From: Vermamoeba vermiformis
Lineage: Eukaryota
Length of the DNA stretch: 64,000 bases
Assembly (NCBI GenBank): GCA_045837725.1
Contig: JBEWZL010000292.1
Coordinates: forward strand, 62,001 to 126,000
Reading direction: 5' to 3'
Below, one piece after another: positions 7,002 through 62,325 of this stretch. The notes under the pieces were generated by a model, which saw nothing but the letters and a program-made list of their open reading frames with translations, was not told where the DNA came from and did no database searches. Positions within the stretch are counted from its first letter, which is position 1, and each line of letters starts with the position of its first letter. The position numbers were made by a program, and so were the translations under genes.

Positions 7002-8384
7002 ATGACCTCAAAAGCTGATTTTTTAAAGAGGTATCTGGAGCCAGTAGATCCAGCAGCCTCGTCGGACTACTTGGTTCCGACGAAGAAGAAAAAGAAGAAG
7101 TCCAAAGCTGCTAAAGCTGGAGGCATGAAAATTATCGATTCAGATGCAGACGCGCAAGTCAAACCTGATTTTGATAGGCAAGATGAAGAAGGTAAGCGAA
7201 TGCATTTTCTTTTATTATTCAAAAAATTCAAAAATTATTCTTTTAATTGCCCTATTGCTTCTCTTAATCTCAATATACACTATTACGTCGAAAATAAATG
7301 TTGCGTCGACAAACAAAATTCTGATTGGCAATTTCAATTCACAGAAGCACCAGTGATAGTCGAAGAGTCCTCAAAGCCCGTAGTTGAGGTCAAGAAGCCC
7401 AAAGTGGCACTCGGCAATTGGGTCACAGTCGCAGGTGACAATTCACCGCCCAGACGTCGCGATGACGCTTCACCACCACGCAGACAAGTTGATGATTCAC
7501 CTCCGCGAAGAACTATCGATGACAGCTCACCTCCACGACGCAGAACAGAGGACGCATCACCTCCACGACGCAGAACAGACGATGCATCACCACCACGTCG
7601 CAGAACAGAGGACGCATCACCACCACGTCGCAGAACAGACGATGCATCACCACCACGTCGCAGAACAGAGGACGCATCACCACCACGCCGCCACACTGAA
7701 GATGCCTCGCCACCACGTCGTGCCAACACAGACACGAATCGCAAGCGCAGTGCAGCCAGTGTGGTCGAAGAAGAAGGTCCAGTCAAGAAGCGACGCATGT
7801 TAGACGGAGGCAAAGCAGGTCTGTTGACCGACGAAGATGTTGCACGCGAAGAAGAAGCCTATCGCGCAGCTCAAGCAGCCAAGTTCCAGAACAGAGATCT
7901 GAGTGAGCTCGGCAAGGGTGCGCAGACAGTGTATCGTGACAGCAAGGGTCGTCGACTCGACACCCTCGTCGCAGCGATGAAGCAGCAGCAAGGTGAGCTG
8001 CTGGAGAGTGAAGAAGCGAATATGGAGTGGGGTGTGGGTCGTGTCGATGTCAAGAAACGCGAAGAAGAAGAACAACGCAGACGCGAAGAGGCAGATGCGC
8101 CGTACAAGGGCAAGAGCATGCACGACAAGGAGCTGAACGAGGACTGGCGACAAGAGGACCGCTGGGGTGATCCGATGGCCAAGTTCAAAGCAAAGAGCGA
8201 CAAGAAAGAGAAGAAGAAGGAGTATCAAGGCTGGTGGCCCCCCAATCGCTTCAACCTCGCCCCTGGTTATCGCTGGGACGGCATTGACCGCTCGAATGGC
8301 TTTGAAAAGAATTACTTCCTGCACCAGAACAGCAAGAAAGCGTTGCAAGATGTGGCCTATCGCTTCTTGTCCGAAGACATGTAA
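7002..8384 (+). CDS. BUD13: BUD13 homolog (RES splicing complex); one intron at ~7192-7343
   Basis: MTSKADFLKRYL start, DASPPRR repeats, GAQTVYRD, RWGDPMA and PPNRFNLAPGYRWDGIDRSNGFE...SEDM*. Confidence 0.96.
   Translation: MTSKADFLKRYLEPVDPAASSDYLVPTKKKKKKSKAAKAGGMKIIDSDADAQVKPDFDRQDEEGKRMHFLLLFKKFKNYSFNCPIASLNLNIHYYVENKCCVDKQNSDWQFQFTEAPVIVEESSKPVVEVKKPKVALGNWVTVAGDNSPPRRRDDASPPRRQVDDSPPRRTIDDSSPPRRRTEDASPPRRRTDDASPPRRRTEDASPPRRRTDDASPPRRRTEDASPPRRHTEDASPPRRANTDTNRKRSAASVVEEEGPVKKRRMLDGGKAGLLTDEDVAREEEAYRAAQAAKFQNRDLSELGKGAQTVYRDSKGRRLDTLVAAMKQQQGELLESEEANMEWGVGRVDVKKREEEEQRRREEADAPYKGKSMHDKELNEDWRQEDRWGDPMAKFKAKSDKKEKKKEYQGWWPPNRFNLAPGYRWDGIDRSNGFEKNYFLHQNSKKALQDVAYRFLSEDM
7521..7720 (+). 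repeat. Coding tandem repeat of about 30 bp (DASPPRRRTE/TD) in BUD13
   Basis: About 6-7 units of GAYGCATCACCWCCACGWCGCAGAACAGAS, with TE and TD variants alternating. Confidence 0.9.
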
Positions 8385-14915: not shown

Positions 14916-17091
14916 ATGGAACAGTATGTATTGCGCAACCACTTCCAACGACTAACGATCAGATCCCCAAAACACACGAAACTTGTCATCTGAAAGCTAA
15001 TGTGATTTATTTATAGAGAAAACAATAACCAGAAGAATCAAAAGCAGCCGAAGCAACCCAAGCAAGCCAAGGCTCAAGCTGTAAGATCCGATCGAAAAAA
15101 AAACATTCTTTTGTGATCGGCAATAACTGACCGTAAATAGGACCCTAAGGCTAAGAAGGCTGTTGATGCCGATGAGGAGCTCGACGCTAGCGTAAGTAAT
15201 TTTTAAAGTCGTTATTTAACGATATTTATGAAATAAAATAAAATTCTGGATGCATCAAGTTAACCTCTTTTATGAATAATTCATAAAACGTTACAAACAT
15301 ACTATAATACCCACAATTTATTTTTCATACTCGTTTTTGCACTGTTTATGCATCCGCGATCGAGTGGCTAACAGCAGCTTGTGTCGCTAGCAATACTTTG
15401 AAATGCGTGCGCGTTGGATCCAATCGCTCAAGGACAGCGGCAAGAACCCTTACCCGCACAAGTTCCCTGTCTCTATCTCCGTGCCCACTTTCATTGAGCG
15501 CTATCAACATCTGCAGAATGGTGAAATGCTTAGCGACGTCGTAGTTGGTCTTGCTGGTACGTTGACTACGGTCCTATATTAATATAGTTTTGTATTGTAC
15601 TCACGCGCTGCAGGTCGTGTTCGCTCACGTCGCAGCAGTGGCAACAAGCTCTTCTTCTACGAGCTGATCGGTGATGGCGTCAAGCTTCAAATCCTCGCCA
15701 ATGCCTCGTACGTTGTTGCTCTATTGCAACTGTCTAGTACTGCGTGCTAATACTCTTACAGCGTGTACACAAATGCCGAGGAGTTCGCAGATGTGAACGC
15801 ACACATTAAGCGCGGTGACATTATCGGTGCTCTCGGTCACCCCTCGCGCAGCAAGACTGGCGAGCTCTCATTGGTGCCCACCAAGCTCGAGATCCTCTCG
15901 CCCTGTCTCTACATGATCCCTCGTCCTGGTACCTTGAAGGACCAAGAGACGCGTTATCGTCAGCGCTACTTGGACATGATTGTCAACGATCACACGCGCA
16001 CCATCTTCTTCACGCGCGCCAAGATCATCAACTACATTCGCAACTACCTCAACGAGCGTCACTTCCTTGAAGTTGAGACTCCGATGATGAACATGATTGC
16101 TGGTGGTGCTGCCGCCAAGCCCTTCGTGACGCATCACAACGACCTCAACATGCGTCTCTTCATGCGCATTGCTCCCGAGCTCTACTTGAAGCAGCTGATT
16201 GTCGGTGGTATTGAGCGTGTCTACGAGATTGGTCGTCAGTTCCGCAATGAAGGCATTGATCTCACACACAACCCCGAGTTCACCACCTGCGAGTTCTACA
16301 TGGCCTATGCTGACTACGCAGATTTGATGACCATCACTGAAGAGATGATCCGTGGCATGGTCAAGGCCATCACGGGCAGCTATCAATTGAAGTACAACCC
16401 TGCTGGTGGCTACGATCCTGAGGCCCCCGCTGACAAGGTGATCACCGTGGACTTTGAACAGCCCTTCTTGCGCATTCCGATGATCAAGGGCCTCGAAGAT
16501 GAGCTCAAGGTCACCTTCCCCACCGACCTCGAGTCCGACGAGACCAACAAGTTCTTGCGCGAGCTGTGTGTCAAGCACAACGTTGAGTGCGCTGATCCCA
16601 AGACCAATGCACGTCTGTTGGACAAGTTGGTGGGCGAGTTCATTGAAGTCAAGGCCAAGGAACGTCCCTTGTTCATCACTGATCACCCGCAATTGATGAG
16701 TCCTCTCGCCAAGTGGAACAGAAATCAGCGCAACTTGACCGAGCGATTCGAGTTGTTCATCATGACGCGCGAGGTCTGCAACGCCTACACTGAGTTGAAT
16801 GACCCGTTCGTGCAACGCAGTCTGTTCGGAGATCAAGCCAAGCTCAAGGCCCAAGGTGACGACGAGGCACAACTGATCGATGAGACCTTCTGCAAGGCCC
16901 TCGAATACGGTCTGCCGCCCACTGGTGGCTGGGGTATGGGTATCGATCGTATGGCCATGTTCTTGGCCAACTGCATCAACATCAAGGAGGTGATTTTATT
17001 CCCTGCCATGAAGCCCATCGAGAACGAGCCTCAACCGCAACAAGCTGGCCAACCACAACAGCCTGGCCAACCCGCTGCTCCAAAGAACTAG
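14916..17091 (+). CDS. KARS: Cytosolic lysyl-tRNA synthetase (class II) with several short 5' exons
   Basis: [43 protein letters not shown] and [18 protein letters not shown] micro-exon at 14916. Confidence 0.97.
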
Positions 17092-17175
17092 ATGTGCAGT
17101 TGCGGAATAAAAGGCCAAGCACTTCGGCACTTTATTGAAAATTAATAGTGATATACAAATATTACAAAGTATCCT

Positions 17176-19395
17176 TTAGAAGGTGATGATGGACAAAAGC
17201 TCTTTCGTAAGCTTGGTGTCTCCAAGATGCAATCTTTTGCGCACGTCATCTTCCCCACCGAAGGGTTTCACACCCCGTTCAGCCAAAATGACCCTTGCCT
17301 TCTGTTCGCCCAGACCTTGAACACGACGCAGGGCCCATTCAGGAGCAGAATTGACATTTATTGTCTCAGTGCCTAATAACAATGGATAGTAAGTAAATCA
17401 CTCATATTCCTCGTGCAGTACTGCTACTTACACCAGAAGTGCACTCGCTCTGCAAAGGGTCTACCAAAGAACGCTTCAAATTGTTGCAAAGCGACCACAG
17501 CACAACGGTCAGGGAGGCAAACAGTATCTTCTAGTTTTCCTGTTGAAAGCACCAGCAACATCCAATGTTTTAGTTTGGCCTTGCCCATCGCCTTCTGTAC
17601 TTTTCGATGCTCATCGTCGATTATTTGTTGCGTCAACTTCTCGAACTTGTAGTACTTGGTTTGGCCACAGATCACAAAGCCGTGTTTGGTACCATTGTCG
17701 AGAGAGACAAAGAAATCGAAGGGAGCTCCTTCTTTGTTCAGCACGACTTGTCCAGAGCTCTGCCAGGGGATTGGGGTGCAGTTATCCGAGATGGTCCGGT
17801 TCTTTGGAAACCTGTTGCTCGCTCGCCACACAGCTCCTCTGTCCTTGTTTGGAGCTCTGATACCAACCGTTGCATCAAGTTGACCACCAAACTTAGCTCC
17901 GCGGAGCAGATCCTTGAGCTTGACTCGACCTGCTTGAGCCCATGCAGCGATCTTCAGGGCCACGTACTGAGCACAAAATACGTCGAAGTGCTGCCAAGTG
18001 AAGAACTGATCATCTTCTGATGAGCGGATAGTGGCACTCAAGACCTCCAGCAGTGGTGAATTGCATCCCGTGTGTAGCAACCAGGCCTGAAGACATAGAT
18101 AAGGGAGGTAAGGAGTTTCTTTGTCGAATCTTAGGCCCAGTTCAAGCCGCTCCAGTTGATCATAGGTCAGTGTAGTGCCAGCCACTGAGGTGGTGGTCGC
18201 GACTCGTTGTCGCCGAATCGTATCGCCGATTACACTTTGCAGTGCCCCACAGCAGCGGGACGCCGACCAATTAGTTGACATCTTTCTGGCGAGAGTTTCG
18301 GACACAACTGTCCAATTCACTTGGTTCAGTGAAGGATAGCCCTTAACTAGCATCAATAATTGCTCGAGTAGCCGAGGATGTCCTCCAATGTCGAGCAATA
18401 CAGCTCGAAAGCATGCATCAGCGGAGATCTCTGAGGCCTGTAGCACTTCTTGAGCGATAGCCAGCGTGGACGTTGTGGATAACGGACTCAATCGACGATA
18501 GTCTACGGGGAGTTTTAAAGACAGTGCAGCGTTGGTCACTCCCTCTAGCGATGTTCCAGCTAACAGAAAGAAGAAATTGACCCCGTGTGGAGGATGCAGC
18601 CTCGTTGATTGGAGGCTCTCAATGATGTTTTTTAATGCCCGATTTGCCAGTTCCCTGTCTTCTTCGAGCCATTTACTATATTCGTCAACCCCCACCGCAA
18701 TGTTGACAATTGTATCTGGGCTTAGCTTGTTGGAGTGGAGGTAGTCTTCTCGAATTAATTCCAAAGACTGGCTGAGGTCGAATCCACTTTGTGCCACAGC
18801 TCCGAACATTTCCTTCAAGCAATTAGAACCTTTGGCTCCTTCCACAAAGTGATGATAAAGAAGTCTCAAGGAAAATGCCAGAGCAGGTTCTTCTCGATCT
18901 ACACGAGAGATGACGTTTCCGTCGTTGTACGTGGCATGAATGTGAATATAATGAGGGAAGTCGTTGACCACTTCGGCATGGGGGCTGCGTAGAGCTTCAG
19001 CAATAAATCGAGTTTTTCCTGAGCCTGGAGTGCCAACAATCGCCAAAAGCGGCCATTTTGTCCGATCACGCACGCTATCAGAGCGGAACTGTTTTTCGTG
19101 TTGAAACTGACGCCACACGTCTAGATACAAATCATCGCGCTCCAGAAAAGGAAGCTGACGACCTCCAACTGCGTGAATTCGCTAAGGCTCAGGAGGTTAG
19201 CGAACATTCAAATTCACATTTTAATTAATTTAACGAAATTATAAAATGCTTTAATTATTTATGCACCTCAAAATTGGCTGAGAGCTCAGGTGGTCGTTGG
19301 TTCTTGGCAATGATTCCCTTAAGTTGTTGAAATTTTTTAGCTACTTTTCTTATTCGTTTAAGCGGAGAGAGGGAACGCTCGCAAGTCTGAGACAT
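17176..19395 (-). CDS. Crinkler (CRN)-like protein: P-loop NTPase + PD-(D/E)xK-type REase + C-terminal helix-hairpin-helix; two introns
   Basis: Walker A GTPGSGKT, Walker B VGVDE, GGHPR motif, WQHFDVFCA...GAPFDFF...GQTKY nuclease-like core, and spliced tail INVNSAPEWALRRVQGLGEQKARVIL. Confidence 0.78.
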
Positions 19396-19581
19396 CACTT
19401 CAGAGGTGTTGTAGTTTAATGATAATTGTTTGAAAATAAAAAATTAAAACGGTCAAAAAAAAACGCGGTACAAAAAACGAAATTTCAGTGAAAACTTAAC
19501 CTTGGTAACCGGCGGTGAGGAATTAGGTGGTGAAACTAGCGAGTAGGATTACAAGTTGATTGAATGTTTATTAAAAGACTG

Positions 19582-22328
19582 TTATTTTCCATGGCACCTT
19601 TTAAATTTTTTGCCAGATCCGCACGGACACACCTCATTGCGGTTGACTTTGCTCTCTTTGGCTGGCGCAGCACTGGGCGGGGCAGCGCGCACACTTGGCG
19701 TGACACTTTGTTGCTCACGTTCTCTCGTCTCTTGAATCACTTGGTACAGATTGCCATATTTAGCCTCGCGAATGGACACGTTGACATTCTCCACTGCGAG
19801 TTGTGCCTCTTGCATTGTGAGCACGGGTTTGTTGCGCTCATCTTCGAGCGGCACTTCGTTCTCCTCGTGCACGCGCCAGTCAGTGCTGTGCGAGGCCTGG
19901 TCAGAGGGCTGTGCGGGCACTGGTCCTGAACTGCCACTCGACTCTTCGAACTGCGTGGCGAGCACTGCCACCAGTGTTTTGTCGGCAGCAAAGTACTGTG
20001 CTGAACTCTTCTTGGCGTCTAGTGGGAAGGGCAGCTGAGTCTAGAGAGGAATTGTTATTGTTATTAGAGAAGTAGTGCAGGGACACAACACTCACATTGA
20101 ATAGATATCTGCTGCTCGAGTCCACCAAACTGACCTCACCGCTGCTCTTCACATCGAGCGACACATTTGCATCGGGGCCCTGAAGACAATCAGTGGTCAC
20201 GCGATCTGATGCAGCACTGGATGTCTTACCAAGTCCGTGAGGTGCATCTTGAGCACCAAATCTTCAATCGAGTCGTCCTCTCTCGTCCTGTAATATGCGC
20301 GGCACTTGGGTCGTGCAGTGAGCGGAGGACTCTTGGCCACTTCGCTCGAACTGTTGAGCGGCACTTCATTCGAGGCACTGAGCGTGGACTTCTCGCTCGA
20401 CTCACTTGGCGTGGCATTTGCATTGCCTTTGCGCTTGTTCTTTTTCTTGTTGCCAGTGCTGATGACGGGCACCGGTGCAGTGCTCTCAGTCGACTTGTTC
20501 AATGGAGCACTGGCACTGCTAGTGCGCGAGTTGGGTTTGTTCTTCTTGTAGAACAAAATGTACGCGTTCTGTTTGAGCACCACGGCAGGGCTGACATTGC
20601 GCGTCACTTTTTCATCGTCAAACAAGTGCCACTGGCCTTGGTGGCGCACAAAGCAGGTGTAGTGGCCTGAGAAACAAGTCTCGCCGTAGTGCACGAGCAC
20701 GGCGTAGAGTGAATAGCCCGCGTCCTCGACTTCCTGCGCAGCATTAGTGTGTGACCACAGCACATTGGAACAACGTACTTTAGACTCAGCACTGAGCGCA
20801 GATTTCAGGTCCAGCTCCTCAGTGAATGTGATGGGCTTGTTGATCTTGAGACCACCGCGCATCATATCAAATCGCTTCAACTGCACCATCAATATGTTGG
20901 GCGGCGAATAGATTGTCAACTGTTTCTGTGCTGGCACTGCTTGATTGCATCTGATTGGCGGTCAGTAATGCTACATGCCTATAAATAACATACTTGTCGC
21001 ATCTGTAGCCAGTGGACTCATCGAGCTTTTCAATGCGCACAAAGTTCATCAGCGCCTCCTCCACGGAGAGGGCGTTCTGACTGAGATCGAGATTGAGATC
21101 TAAAAATGACTCGAGACTGCTGTTGACATTGCCGCACTTCTCGCACTTGACTTGACTCTGCAAGCTGCCACCAAACAGTTGATAAATCACCGTCGTCTCT
21201 TCAATGCGCATCTCATCCTCTCTGCGGCACTCGTCAGCACTCATTTGCAGAAATATTTGCAGCCCTTACTTGTCGATGGCAAAAGATACACCAGGATTTT
21301 GTTTGATGAAGTTGTCTTTGTATTGTTGATATAGTACGCGATGTGTCCTGTTCAGAATCGATGAAGCAAATTCATGCGCGTCTTCTTGGTTGTACAAAAA
21401 GAAATCACCCAGATCTGCGCGACATACATTAATTCATAAGATGTAGTGATTATAAGGCATGTACTCACGTCGCAGATTTTTCAAAAACTCAATCGGAGTG
21501 ATCCACTCGTACTGCGGGTCAAGTACTGTCTGAAGTGTCAAAGTGTCACTCGCGTGTCATCGCGCTATCAGTCACGTGTCAACGTACCTTGGCGTGCTGT
21601 TCAATTTCGCACAGTGCGCAGAATGGCTGTTGAGTGCCTGCGATTGCATGAGTCACGGTCATTAACCTGTCAAAGTACTTACAGCTCTTGGCGTGATCGC
21701 AAGTCAACAAGTAAGTCAGCATGGCAGGCGTGTAGATGACGCACTGCAGCACCGAGTTCAAATAGCAGCTGTTGCCCACATTTTTCAAGCCAGCACCTGT
21801 CACGCATTGTCAGAAATCACACTGTGGGTCCTATTCACTACGCACCTAATGGTCTCTTTTCTTCGAATTGCATCATCTGCTCCACTCGCTTGGGTGGCAC
21901 AATGTATCTAATAAGATGTTAATATTAAGGTGCGTTGTAGTCAAGAATTCTAACCTTGATGGCTGTTTCAACAATGATAGGCGCTTAGTGCCGCTAGTGG
22001 TACCAACAGGTGTCTCAGTCTTAGGCACGTCTTGTTTAATATACTCTGTTGTGACTTGATCGCGTAATATTTTGCATTGTCTGTTGTGACCTAAATTCCA
22101 GTGTTTTCTCTTTTGAATTTTATCAGAATATTATGAATATTACTATTTGTCGGTTAATAGACGTACCTGACAGTCTCCACTGCAGTAAAAAACTTTCTAA
22201 ATTGATTATTTTAATTAGTAAATTTTGGCTAATAATGATTTTTTGCGATCCGATCTGATCCAACCAACCTTGCAACCGCCACACTTCGATGTTGTTAATT
22301 TTCCGCACTGAATACAAGGACTAGACAT
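19582..22328 (-). CDS. Ubiquitin-specific protease with N-terminal MYND finger, USP catalytic domain (USP36/42 or plant UBP15-19-like), CS-like domain and C-terminal SEC-C motif
   Basis: Spliced MYND CIQCGKLTTSKCGGCKKVFYCSGDCQRKHWNLGHNRQC; Cys box GLKNVGNSCYLNSVLQC; QEDAHEF; His box HYGETCFSGHY..WHLFDD; tail RNEVCPCGSGKKFKRCHGK*. Confidence 0.85.
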
Positions 22329-60047: not shown

Positions 60048-62325
60048 CTAGACCTTATTTAGATGTTTGTACAAGTAAGTCGAATCTATACAACGCAGAT
60101 CTTGATCATCCAAGCTGCGGTAAAATAGAATGTACGCTGTGCTGGATGACTTAGACTCCATATTAAACAAATTCATTATTTCTTTTTCAGTTTTGAACGT
60201 CACTGTCTCGTCGTCGCAGTGGATCCAACTGTGCTCTTCTTTATTGTCGGATCCATTTCTGCTCGCTGGAGTGCTGAAAAAGTCGGTTCCAGGAATATGA
60301 CTATGATTACCGTGATCGTATTCGCCATCACCTTCATTGCTTGGCGTAGGTCGTTTGATTTTTAAATAGGAAAAGTAATGCCCATAAGACATGCTCGAGC
60401 CTTGGTGGAAAATAATGCCAAATAGCTCTATATGATACATAATCAGCACATTAGGTTAATAATAAAGAGTGCGTACCGTAAATGTTATTCCTTTCTTTGC
60501 AAGTCTTTTCGCACCACTGATCCAGTTTCAAATAGAGCGGGCTAGGAATGTGATGGTTGATCTTTTCAGTCGAGTACATTTCATGTCTGAATCTCTTCAA
60601 GTGGATCGTTAATATGCGCGGCAATGCACCAAACTTGGTCGATTTGACGGCCTGACAACAAACATATTACAACATTGCCGAATCAAAAAGAAACTATATA
60701 AACTATACCTCTGTGTGCGTACGACAGTTTTCGCACGAGTATTTATTATCGCCCCGTAATCTGTTAATAATAAGTTAATACCAAGTCAATTTCTATCAAG
60801 AAATTACTTACTGTTCACTGCTCGCAAACTGAGCGATCGACCACATCAAATTTTGACCCTTTTGAATCGTCAAGCTCAAATCTAAAAAGTTCTCGCTGCG
60901 CGCAGATACATTCTCGCACTCGAGACACTTGATCGAGTTCACTGAACAGCCTTGAAACAGTCGTTCAATGTAACTTAAACGTGTCTCAGGAGCTGGACTC
61001 GGCAGTGATTTCTTCAACGGTGATAAATATTTTGGTGTTGTATTGCCGCTGTTAGTGCCATTACTGTGACCGTTTTGTCCGTTCGGATGAGTTGTACCAT
61101 TACTCGCGACACATCCATTTTGACCATTGTCCAGGCGTTGCTTTTTAAACGGCGGTGCATCACCGTTGCTCGTGCTATTGTGGTACTCGTTGCCATAGCT
61201 TGTATGTCCGTGGCCATTAAATTCGTGACCATTGGTACTGTGTCCATTCTCCTCAACATCGCTCATCATGTCGCTGTAGGACCGCTTTCTTCTCTTAATG
61301 TGATTCTCTACTTCACTGAACACCTTCATGCACGTCTTGTCGGCATCGTCTAAATGACCGAGCACGACACGAATGAACTCTTGCACGTCTTGTTGTTCTG
61401 TGCCAGGCCCGAATTGAGGATCGATCGCTCTACAGTATGATTAGGCACCATTGATTATTAACAGTGAATACATACCCCAATGCCATCATGAGTGGCCTCG
61501 GTACAATGGCCGCGCCAATAGCTGTGTTCAAGTCTAGTTCGTGCTGTTGCGAGTACAAATGTGACAGTTTGTGATATCGTTCGTCCATCTCTTTGAACAG
61601 GTCTAAGAACTGATTGATGAGATGACGCGCTATATGCACGTGCGCCATATTCTTGTTATCGAACAGTGGCCGTCCAACAGCGGTCTCAGTGTCTATTGAA
61701 AATAGCGTAGTATTCATCGAATTTGCCGTGCGCAAATGGGTATGAAACTCTTTTGCGTGATATAAAACTTGGAGTACTGAATTGATATAGCATGTGTTGC
61801 CTAAATTATCGAGTCCTGGGAACGGTGCAACATGATTGGTCAGCACAGCTGGCGCAGATCGCGTTCGATCTCCATACGACAAAAATTTTCTTGGTCTGTT
61901 TTGAACCAGAGTTATTTAAATTTACAAATTATATTTGATACTTACGCAGGTGCTATTTGGCTGTTATTAAACGATTGTGCAGGAGGATCAGTGGCTTGCG
62001 ATCCAGAAAATAATGTCCTGCGTACAGGAGAGGGACCCTTTGTCAATTTAAAACTAAGTCGAGCTCTACTCGGGTTATTTAAATTTTGTGGTGATTTTTG
62101 GGCATCATTCTGCGACGTGGTGGTCGGTTCCACTTCCATTCGCTAAAATAAATCACGATCCAAGTTAATTTAGACATCCAAATTATTTCAGTAAGATTAG
62201 GTGATATTATTGTATACCTCTTCGGCGGGCTGGGTGGCATTATTTTCATTTTCTGGTGGATCTTGATCATCCGCGCCATAATTAGCTGCGATGAGTGCCA
62301 AGCCTCCAAGCTCGTTTTCAGCCAT
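60048..62325 (-). CDS. Ubiquitin-specific protease, USP1/USP12-46-like with large inserts, multi-exon
   Basis: FPGLDNLGNTCYINSVLQVLY, QQDVQEF, CLEC..ENFLDLSL, LRGDNKYSCENC, IHLKRF, HQGSSMSYGHY and CDDETV..AYILFY. Confidence 0.88.

Follow-up and report, generated by a model that had tools for sequence, protein, structure and literature searches.

What does a Crinkler-type ATPase–nuclease do in a eukaryote when the header expected of a delivered effector is missing? This question is raised by a minus-strand gene in Vermamoeba vermiformis, which lies at positions 17176–19395 of a 64,000-nucleotide (nt) stretch of DNA (GenBank assembly GCA_045837725.1, contig JBEWZL010000292.1, forward-strand positions 62,001 to 126,000), hereafter the window. 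An original prediction, made from the letters of the window, had described a Crinkler-type NTPase–nuclease with a helix-hairpin-helix (HhH) tail. Its interpretation is borne out in part. The observation of a three-exon ATPase–nuclease gene is confirmed: the predicted coordinates and the exon of about 1.75 kb are right (exon 2 measures 1750 nt), the Walker A and B, GGHPR and D...QxK motifs are all in place, and the 691-codon frame is open throughout across two canonical introns. We propose, with a probability of about 0.6, that the gene encodes a header-less and probably cell-internal member of the Crinkler family in which an ATPase, a winged helix, a restriction-endonuclease-fold (REase) domain and an HhH tail are combined.

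The Crinkler C-terminal module and its parts

Assignment of the protein to the Crinkler (CRN) family comes from its relatives. A Pfam scan of exon 2 alone gave only sub-threshold P-loop families, and both PADLOC and a phmmer search of exon 2 against the PDB returned chance-level rows only. A profile of the close clade reached 712 proteins at E ≤ 1e-3 among 1.84 billion representatives, with 293 at ≤ 1e-10 and 24 at ≤ 1e-30. A choice of 67 near-full-length proteins among the profile hits listed, together with the window protein, makes up a 68-row set, and Pfam scanning of this set placed the Crinkler header PF20147 on five rows (best E 1e-21, in P0014) and HHH_3, at E ≤ 1e-3, on 16. Four of the five header carriers are identified as P0014, P0017, P0022 and P0024. 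In BLASTP comparisons, exon 2 of the window matches P0014 at 1e-34 (24% identity, residues 22–581 against 182–750) and P0017 at 3e-33. Because these matches to header-bearing proteins run across the whole module, the sequence comparison indicates that the entire ATPase-to-nuclease module is homologous to the C-terminal part of Crinkler-header proteins and is therefore a Crinkler C-terminal module, as the original prediction had it. Neighbors in a protein atlas, which we treat as a lead only, are clusters of eukaryotic proteins found most often in Mucoromycota and Rhodophyta; one such cluster bears the name Crinkler family and carries PF20147 on 45% of its members. No relative was found on prokaryotic and viral contigs, where the search used narrow close-clade peptide patterns only and is thus no test of the published prokaryotic or transposon origin or of a link to giant viruses. 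In Phytophthora CRNs, the combination of NTPase, HTH and REase is described as the commonest C-terminus (PMC5289972), and the annotation of Rhizophagus CRNs according to Zhang et al. 2016 lists REase, NTPase4 and HhH domains (PMC6131194).

An AlphaFold2 model of exon 2, computed from the 68-row alignment, is of high confidence (predicted local distance difference test score, pLDDT, 92.8; predicted template modeling score, pTM, 0.90). Its residues 2–415 (residue numbers, such as K56, D166, R270, D400 and K509, count along exon 2 throughout) match AAA+/STAND ATPases plus their helical and winged-helix arm. The best match is Pyrococcus PABY2304 (2qen_A, Z 17.4), followed by plant NLRs (Z 16.3 for WRR4A, and 15.3), SSO1545 (2fna, Z 15.2), archaeal ORC/Cdc6 (ORC2, Z 14.4), the transposition ATPases TnsC (Z 14.0) and MuB (Z 12.7), CED-4 (Z 12.9) and Apaf-1 (Z 10.5). 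Foldseek on exon 2 leads to similar proteins, namely RFC, ORC and NRC, at E of about 5e-7. The model thus bears out the STAND-like NTPase of the original prediction. Specifically, a STAND-type ATPase and a probable helical/winged-helix arm are present, and 2qen, 2fna and ORC/Cdc6 score as well as the NLRs or better; on this model the ATPase is AAA+/STAND-like and is not narrowed to one class within AAA+/STAND. Residues ~290–388 are modeled as helices and a two-strand wing, and the ORC/Cdc6 and NLR alignments extend to ~380–417. The residues expected of a working ATPase are conserved: G53, G55 and K56 of Walker A in all 66 filled rows, D166 of Walker B in all 67 and E167 in 62 of 67. T210 is kept in 62 of 67 rows and R270 of the GGHPR motif, likely a sensor-2-type arginine, in 61 of 67. 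As for a C-terminal repeat sensor, the Pfam scan found no LRR, TPR, WD40 or other repeat family, and the C-terminal end of the protein consists of the REase domain and the HhH tail.

The last 194 residues of exon 2, modeled alone, reach a pLDDT of 94.5. Compared by VIA-align, this domain matches 34 chains at Z ≥ 5, almost all of them REase-fold nucleases. The closest is AF1548 (1y88_A; Z 9.7, root-mean-square deviation 2.5 Å over 108 residues), so that the REase fold the original prediction had suspected is indeed predicted. MspJI (Z 7.2), Avs3 (Z 5.9) and Avs4 (Z 5.5) are also matched, and other REase-fold matches include VC1899, Can2, R.BspD6I, Card1, LlaBIII, FokI, Hjc and NucC. The set of an acidic residue, a D and a QxK (D400, D489, Q507, K509) is complete in the window protein. 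A D-QxK site of this kind is typical of Mrr and MspJI. In the family alignment, D489 is kept in 63 of 66 rows, Q507 in 56 of 65 and K509 in 63 of 65. A predicted complex of two copies of the REase domain scored 0.06.

The tail encoded by exon 3 matches HHH_3 (PF12836) at E 1.1e-5, its 25.9 bits lying below the 27-bit gathering cut-off, and a family-profile version of the tail matches the HhH of EEPD1 (7.8e-10), AF1531 and ComEA (1.6e-4). A hidden Markov model built in two rounds from window exon 3 and run on 156 family proteins found a C-terminal HhH in 48 of them, including the header-bearing P0017 and P0022. Among the 67 profile-spanning proteins it occurs in at least 29, a lower bound because gene calls stop at introns (P0001 and P0003–P0005), and it is found on both halves of a 69-row FastTree tree. 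The ComEA-like HhH of the original prediction is therefore supported, as a domain of the ComEA/EEPD1 type. The idea that it is a special, "spliced-on" addition does not, because 48 of the 156 relatives have the tail, header-bearers among them; across the family, the HhH tail is a common and probably ancestral part and no new addition. In the DC-domain Crinkler PsCRN108, which acts in the nucleus, a DNA-binding HhH at L766/G768/V769 is described as required for binding to HSP promoters (PMC4695088).

The window protein has no recognizable header. About 58 residues precede the ATPase, compared with the ~105 residues of a PF20147 domain, and a tblastn search with four header regions gave no match anywhere in the 64 kb (best E 0.55). 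Exon 1 belongs to no Pfam family, has no match among the 156 family proteins and contains no hydrophobic, signal-like stretch on sequence reading; the original prediction, which had reported neither a CRN header nor a signal peptide, thus holds on both counts. It had also read the exon as basic and resembling a nuclear localization signal. The exon is basic, with the run PLKRIRKVAKKF, and the localization reading is weak, since this run is not retained in one of the two relatives described below (L001). Counted over the 67 profile-spanning proteins, fewer than 60 residues lie ahead of the ATPase in 37, 60–99 in five and at least 100 in 25, the first class being swollen by truncated gene calls. 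In the FastTree tree (unrooted, with an unresolved backbone and with four of the five header-bearing rows labeled), the six-member clade of the window protein is monophyletic with a support of 100 and lies apart from the subclade with the four labeled header proteins. Such a tree fits loss of a header and gain of a header alike.

Gene structure, conservation and setting

Among 5.8 billion clustered proteins, a search with exon 2 found only six close homologues, at E from 0 to 3e-94 (95, 47, 44, 42, 37 and 42% identical). Most of these stop at ...HFWCK, which is the read-through of the donor of intron 2, and P0002 passes in frame through its own intron into the HhH tail. For two relatives that are 37–48% identical, L001 and L002, metagenomic DNA was recovered, and with it the exons can be compared directly. 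In both, the first exon has 44 codons and ends in phase 0, and intron 1 lies at the same position as in the window, ending in ..tag directly before the R-I-x-x-[VI]-G with which exon 2 starts (RIGSVG in L001, RIAPIG in L002, RIHAVG in the window). Intron 2 follows the first base of a Cys codon, again with the position and phase of the window, and the HhH exon comes next. This last exon is 56% (L001) and 49% (L002) identical to that of the window and keeps the core N-x-N-[ST]-A-P..W.LRR..G.GE, with NVNSAP in the window and NINTAP in both relatives. The alignment of exon 1 with its counterparts is loose, at 31% (L001) and 29% (L002) identity, and includes a shared ..RP.. motif. Because the introns coincide in position and phase in all three loci, the three-exon structure is, as judged from these comparisons, old and conserved, and the retention of the introns at 37–48% identity argues for a long vertical residence of the gene. 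The contigs of L001 (1–5408) and L002 (1–12597) are both prefixed Ga0209960, and the two loci are either paralogues of one eukaryote or come from two related organisms.

Table 1. Coordinates of the gene and its parts, as positions in the 64-kb window
Feature	Position	Strand	Details and basis
Whole coding region	17176..19395	minus	691 codons, three exons; sequence reading and homologues
Exon 1	19395..19267	minus	129 nt, 43 aa; ATG at 19395, phase 0, donor GT at 19266
Intron 1	19266..19182	minus	85 nt, GT..AG, phase 0, ends ..ttag
Exon 2	19181..17432	minus	1750 nt = 583 aa + one base; ATPase, probable winged helix, REase
Intron 2	17431..17373	minus	59 nt, GTAAGT..AG, ends ..attag, phase 1, splits a Cys codon
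Exon 3	17372..17176	minus	Rest of the split Cys codon, 64 codons and TAA (17178..17176); helix-hairpin-helix tail
AAA+/STAND-like P-loop ATPase core and lid	18342..19136	minus	Residues ~16-280; structure matches
Walker A GTPGSGKT	19034..19011	minus	Sequence reading and family alignment
Walker B hhhhGVDE	18704..18681	minus	Sequence reading and family alignment
GGHPR, start of lid helix	18386..18372	minus	Sequence, model and family alignment
Helical and probable winged-helix region between ATPase and nuclease	18012..18341	minus	Residues ~281-390; model secondary structure and alignments
Restriction-endonuclease-fold domain	17433..18011	minus	Residues ~391-583; model and structure matches
Nuclease D400	17984..17982	minus	First acidic site residue
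Nuclease D489	17717..17715	minus	Site residue
Nuclease Q507-T-K509	17663..17655	minus	Q507 at 17663..17661, K509 at 17657..17655
AATAAA, possible polyadenylation signal	17131..17136	minus	40 nt past the stop; sequence reading only

Housekeeping genes flank the locus, as had been predicted, and lie close to it. Upstream on the same strand lies a ubiquitin hydrolase gene whose stop (~19582) is 187 nt from the ATG, and downstream a convergent lysyl-tRNA synthetase gene is separated from this gene by 84 nt from stop to stop. The G+C content of the gene equals that of its surroundings, the search for terminal or direct repeats around it gave only short chance-like matches, and no second copy is present within the 64-kb window. 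Beyond the gene itself, the window shares no synteny with L001, which adjoins Cut8, or with L002, which adjoins NPL4 and an MTR4-type helicase.

The neighbors show some features of their own. The upstream gene (window 19582–21400, minus strand) encodes a ubiquitin carboxyl-terminal hydrolase (UCH, E 8e-27) whose last exon ends in the SEC-C zinc motif CPCGSGKKFKRCHGK (PF02810, E 3.8e-10), an unusual pairing. The lysyl-tRNA synthetase has a glutamine/proline-rich tail (17020–17091, plus strand) that derives from an 18-nt tandem duplication (17032–17067). RNA reads deposited under the same species label depart from the window at 17042, so that this tail differs between organisms, and over window 16800–17100 these runs differ from the window at about 19 fixed positions in 240 nt of housekeeping exon. 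Because a conserved housekeeping exon matches only at 90–95%, the sequence comparison indicates that the species label spans at least two clearly different genomes. Farther away, at 7527–7720, a 30-nt unit of the window is repeated in tandem 6.5 times (87% match), and a super-period of 60 nt is seen at 91%.

Proposed activity and competing explanations

By analogy with its structural neighbors, and given the intact sites, we propose that the protein may act as an ATP-gated DNA endonuclease. Attachment to double-stranded DNA, with no sequence preference, would be provided by the HhH tail together with the winged helix. ATP binding would then drive the assembly of an oligomer, as it does in ORC/Cdc6, in TnsC/MuB and in STAND proteins such as Avs, and this assembly would unite single-site, Mrr/MspJI-like nuclease domains, resulting in a cut in the DNA. 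The most likely target is DNA inside the producing cell, since the protein has neither a ubiquitin-like delivery header nor a signal peptide. An internal target in turn favors a conflict or defense nuclease, or a toxin that is domesticated or selfish, over a delivered effector.

Several observations weigh against this proposal. Action in the own cell is argued solely from the absence of a recognizable header. Foldseek of the REase model against the PDB returned nothing at E ≤ 1e-3, the best match being MspJI at 0.02; with Foldseek this weak, the predicted REase fold rests on the VIA-align matches. At position 400, the first acidic residue of the putative site, the family has E in 65 of 68 rows and D in two, and the window protein has D. 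We regard this D, on the family alignment, as a conservative substitution of recent date at a residue that probably binds metal. P0001, the 95%-identical homologue, has E there. Three RNA runs with the same species label (X3–X5) place no reads at all on 17103–19627. Their reads cover only the conserved end of the lysyl-tRNA synthetase gene, and because they are only 90–95% alike there, the runs come from a relative and not from the window strain, and are uninformative on expression or splicing. A further run, X1, which is RNA only by guess, contributes one 245-nt contig at 17742–17986 with a depth of 2.2 and eight differences, and is likewise uninformative on expression. None of the six close homologues is transcript-derived, though a 97%-identical lysyl-tRNA synthetase occurs in a transcriptome set, which we take as a weak hint of low expression. 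Finally, PsCRN108 is reported to work by promoter binding and not by cleavage (PMC4695088).

This last report raises the possibility that the window protein is a DNA-binding regulator like PsCRN108, whose HhH and winged helix alter transcription or chromatin while the REase fold serves as a scaffold. In favor of this reading, PsCRN108 represses HSP genes through HhH-dependent promoter binding (PMC4695088), and the window has D where the family has E at position 400. We nevertheless consider such a regulator improbable: the window and nearly all of the 68 relatives retain D489, Q507, K509 and acidity at position 400, as is expected of a selected active site, and Walker A and B are intact. It is somewhat less probable still that the gene is a selfish or recently mobile toxin of the Medea1 type (CR-NTPase plus REase), kept by drive or by toxin–antidote logic. 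Header-less mobile elements with CR-NTPase8 and REase7, Tribolium Medea1 among them, are described (PMC11342252), and the three loci of the clade are not syntenic, lying next to lysyl-tRNA synthetase and UCH in the window, to Cut8 in L001 and to NPL4 and MTR4 in L002. The locus itself speaks for a settled gene, however: no terminal or direct repeats flank it, its spacers to the neighboring genes are only 84 and 187 nt, the 64-kb window holds no second copy, its G+C content is like that of its surroundings, no transposase or antidote candidate is adjacent, and its introns have been kept at 37–48% identity.

Delivery from the cell would require an unrecognized short N-terminus, made up of exon 1 and about 15 further residues, or some unconventional route. 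The three loci agree in the length and position of exon 1 and have a ..RP.. motif in common, which is consistent with such a role, and several alpha-helical CR headers other than the ubiquitin-like one are known (PMC5289972). But ~58 residues leave no room for the ~105-residue PF20147, a hydrophobic segment is absent, and exon 1 has neither a Pfam family nor a match in the 156 family proteins, so we regard a delivered effector as a distinctly poor prospect. The lack of RNA reads and of a transcript-derived homologue could also mean that the gene is an unexpressed relic, a pseudogene that merely looks intact. This explanation is the hardest to sustain, and we give it very little credence, given an uninterrupted 691-codon frame, two canonical introns, intact catalytic residues, and relatives at 95% and at 37–48% identity that share the structure. 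The header-less, cell-internal ATPase–nuclease thus remains the explanation that we favor. A more speculative extension of it, which we put forward as a long shot, is that the header-less clade is an endogenous immune or suicide nuclease and the eukaryotic counterpart of Avs-like defense: the module would have been kept in-house, ATP-dependent oligomerization on foreign or damaged DNA would fire the REase, and the secreted Crinklers would be its offshoots, not the reverse.

Comparison with known systems and significance

The window protein compares most directly with the header-bearing CRNs, to which its module is homologous from end to end and two of which, P0017 and P0022, share its C-terminal HhH. 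CRN effectors, however, carry a ubiquitin-like (Ubl)/LFLAK-DWL header, whereas the window protein has no header or signal-like N-terminus and sits on a separate branch of the tree. The HhH of PsCRN108, near residue 766, occupies the same relative place as that of the window protein, a likeness by architecture only (PMC4695088). The domain vocabulary is also that of the CR-type toxin modules of Zhang et al. 2016, as summarized in PMC5289972 and PMC6131194.

Crinkler-derived toxins that lack a working header inside free-living eukaryotes have precedents in Medea1 and in the header-degenerate AACRNL (PMC11342252, PMC12957317). By these accounts, Medea1 is an NTPase8/REase7 protein and AACRNL an ADP-ribosyltransferase, subfamilies unlike that of the window protein. 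The window gene shows no sign of mobility or amplification in the 64-kb window and its flanks.

A further parallel is provided by Avs3 and Avs4, which, like the window protein, join a STAND/AAA+-like ATPase to an Mrr-like REase nuclease and which are switched on by oligomerization. Their domain order is reversed, the nuclease being C-terminal in the window protein, and the window protein has an HhH tail and no TPR, LRR or WD sensor. The resemblance is one of logic, not of family membership. With AF1548 (1y88), an archaeal protein of unknown function, the window protein has the REase fold in common at 7% identity; we also take 1y88 to have an HhH-like C-terminal domain.

Both the module of NTPase, REase and HhH and its header-less relatives are already in print, and the identification as such will not surprise specialists. 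The novelty lies in a header-less clade that is small, deeply conserved and intron-bearing and that sits among the housekeeping genes of an under-sampled eukaryote. The nearest named lysyl-tRNA synthetases (from Capsaspora, insects, Chlamydomonas and Dimargaris) are only ~67% identical. Crinkler C-terminal modules are usually treated as the delivered toxins of pathogens and symbionts. The locus described here, single-copy-looking within the 64-kb window, offers a clean test case both for the biochemistry of the module and for its possible service in the cell's own conflicts.

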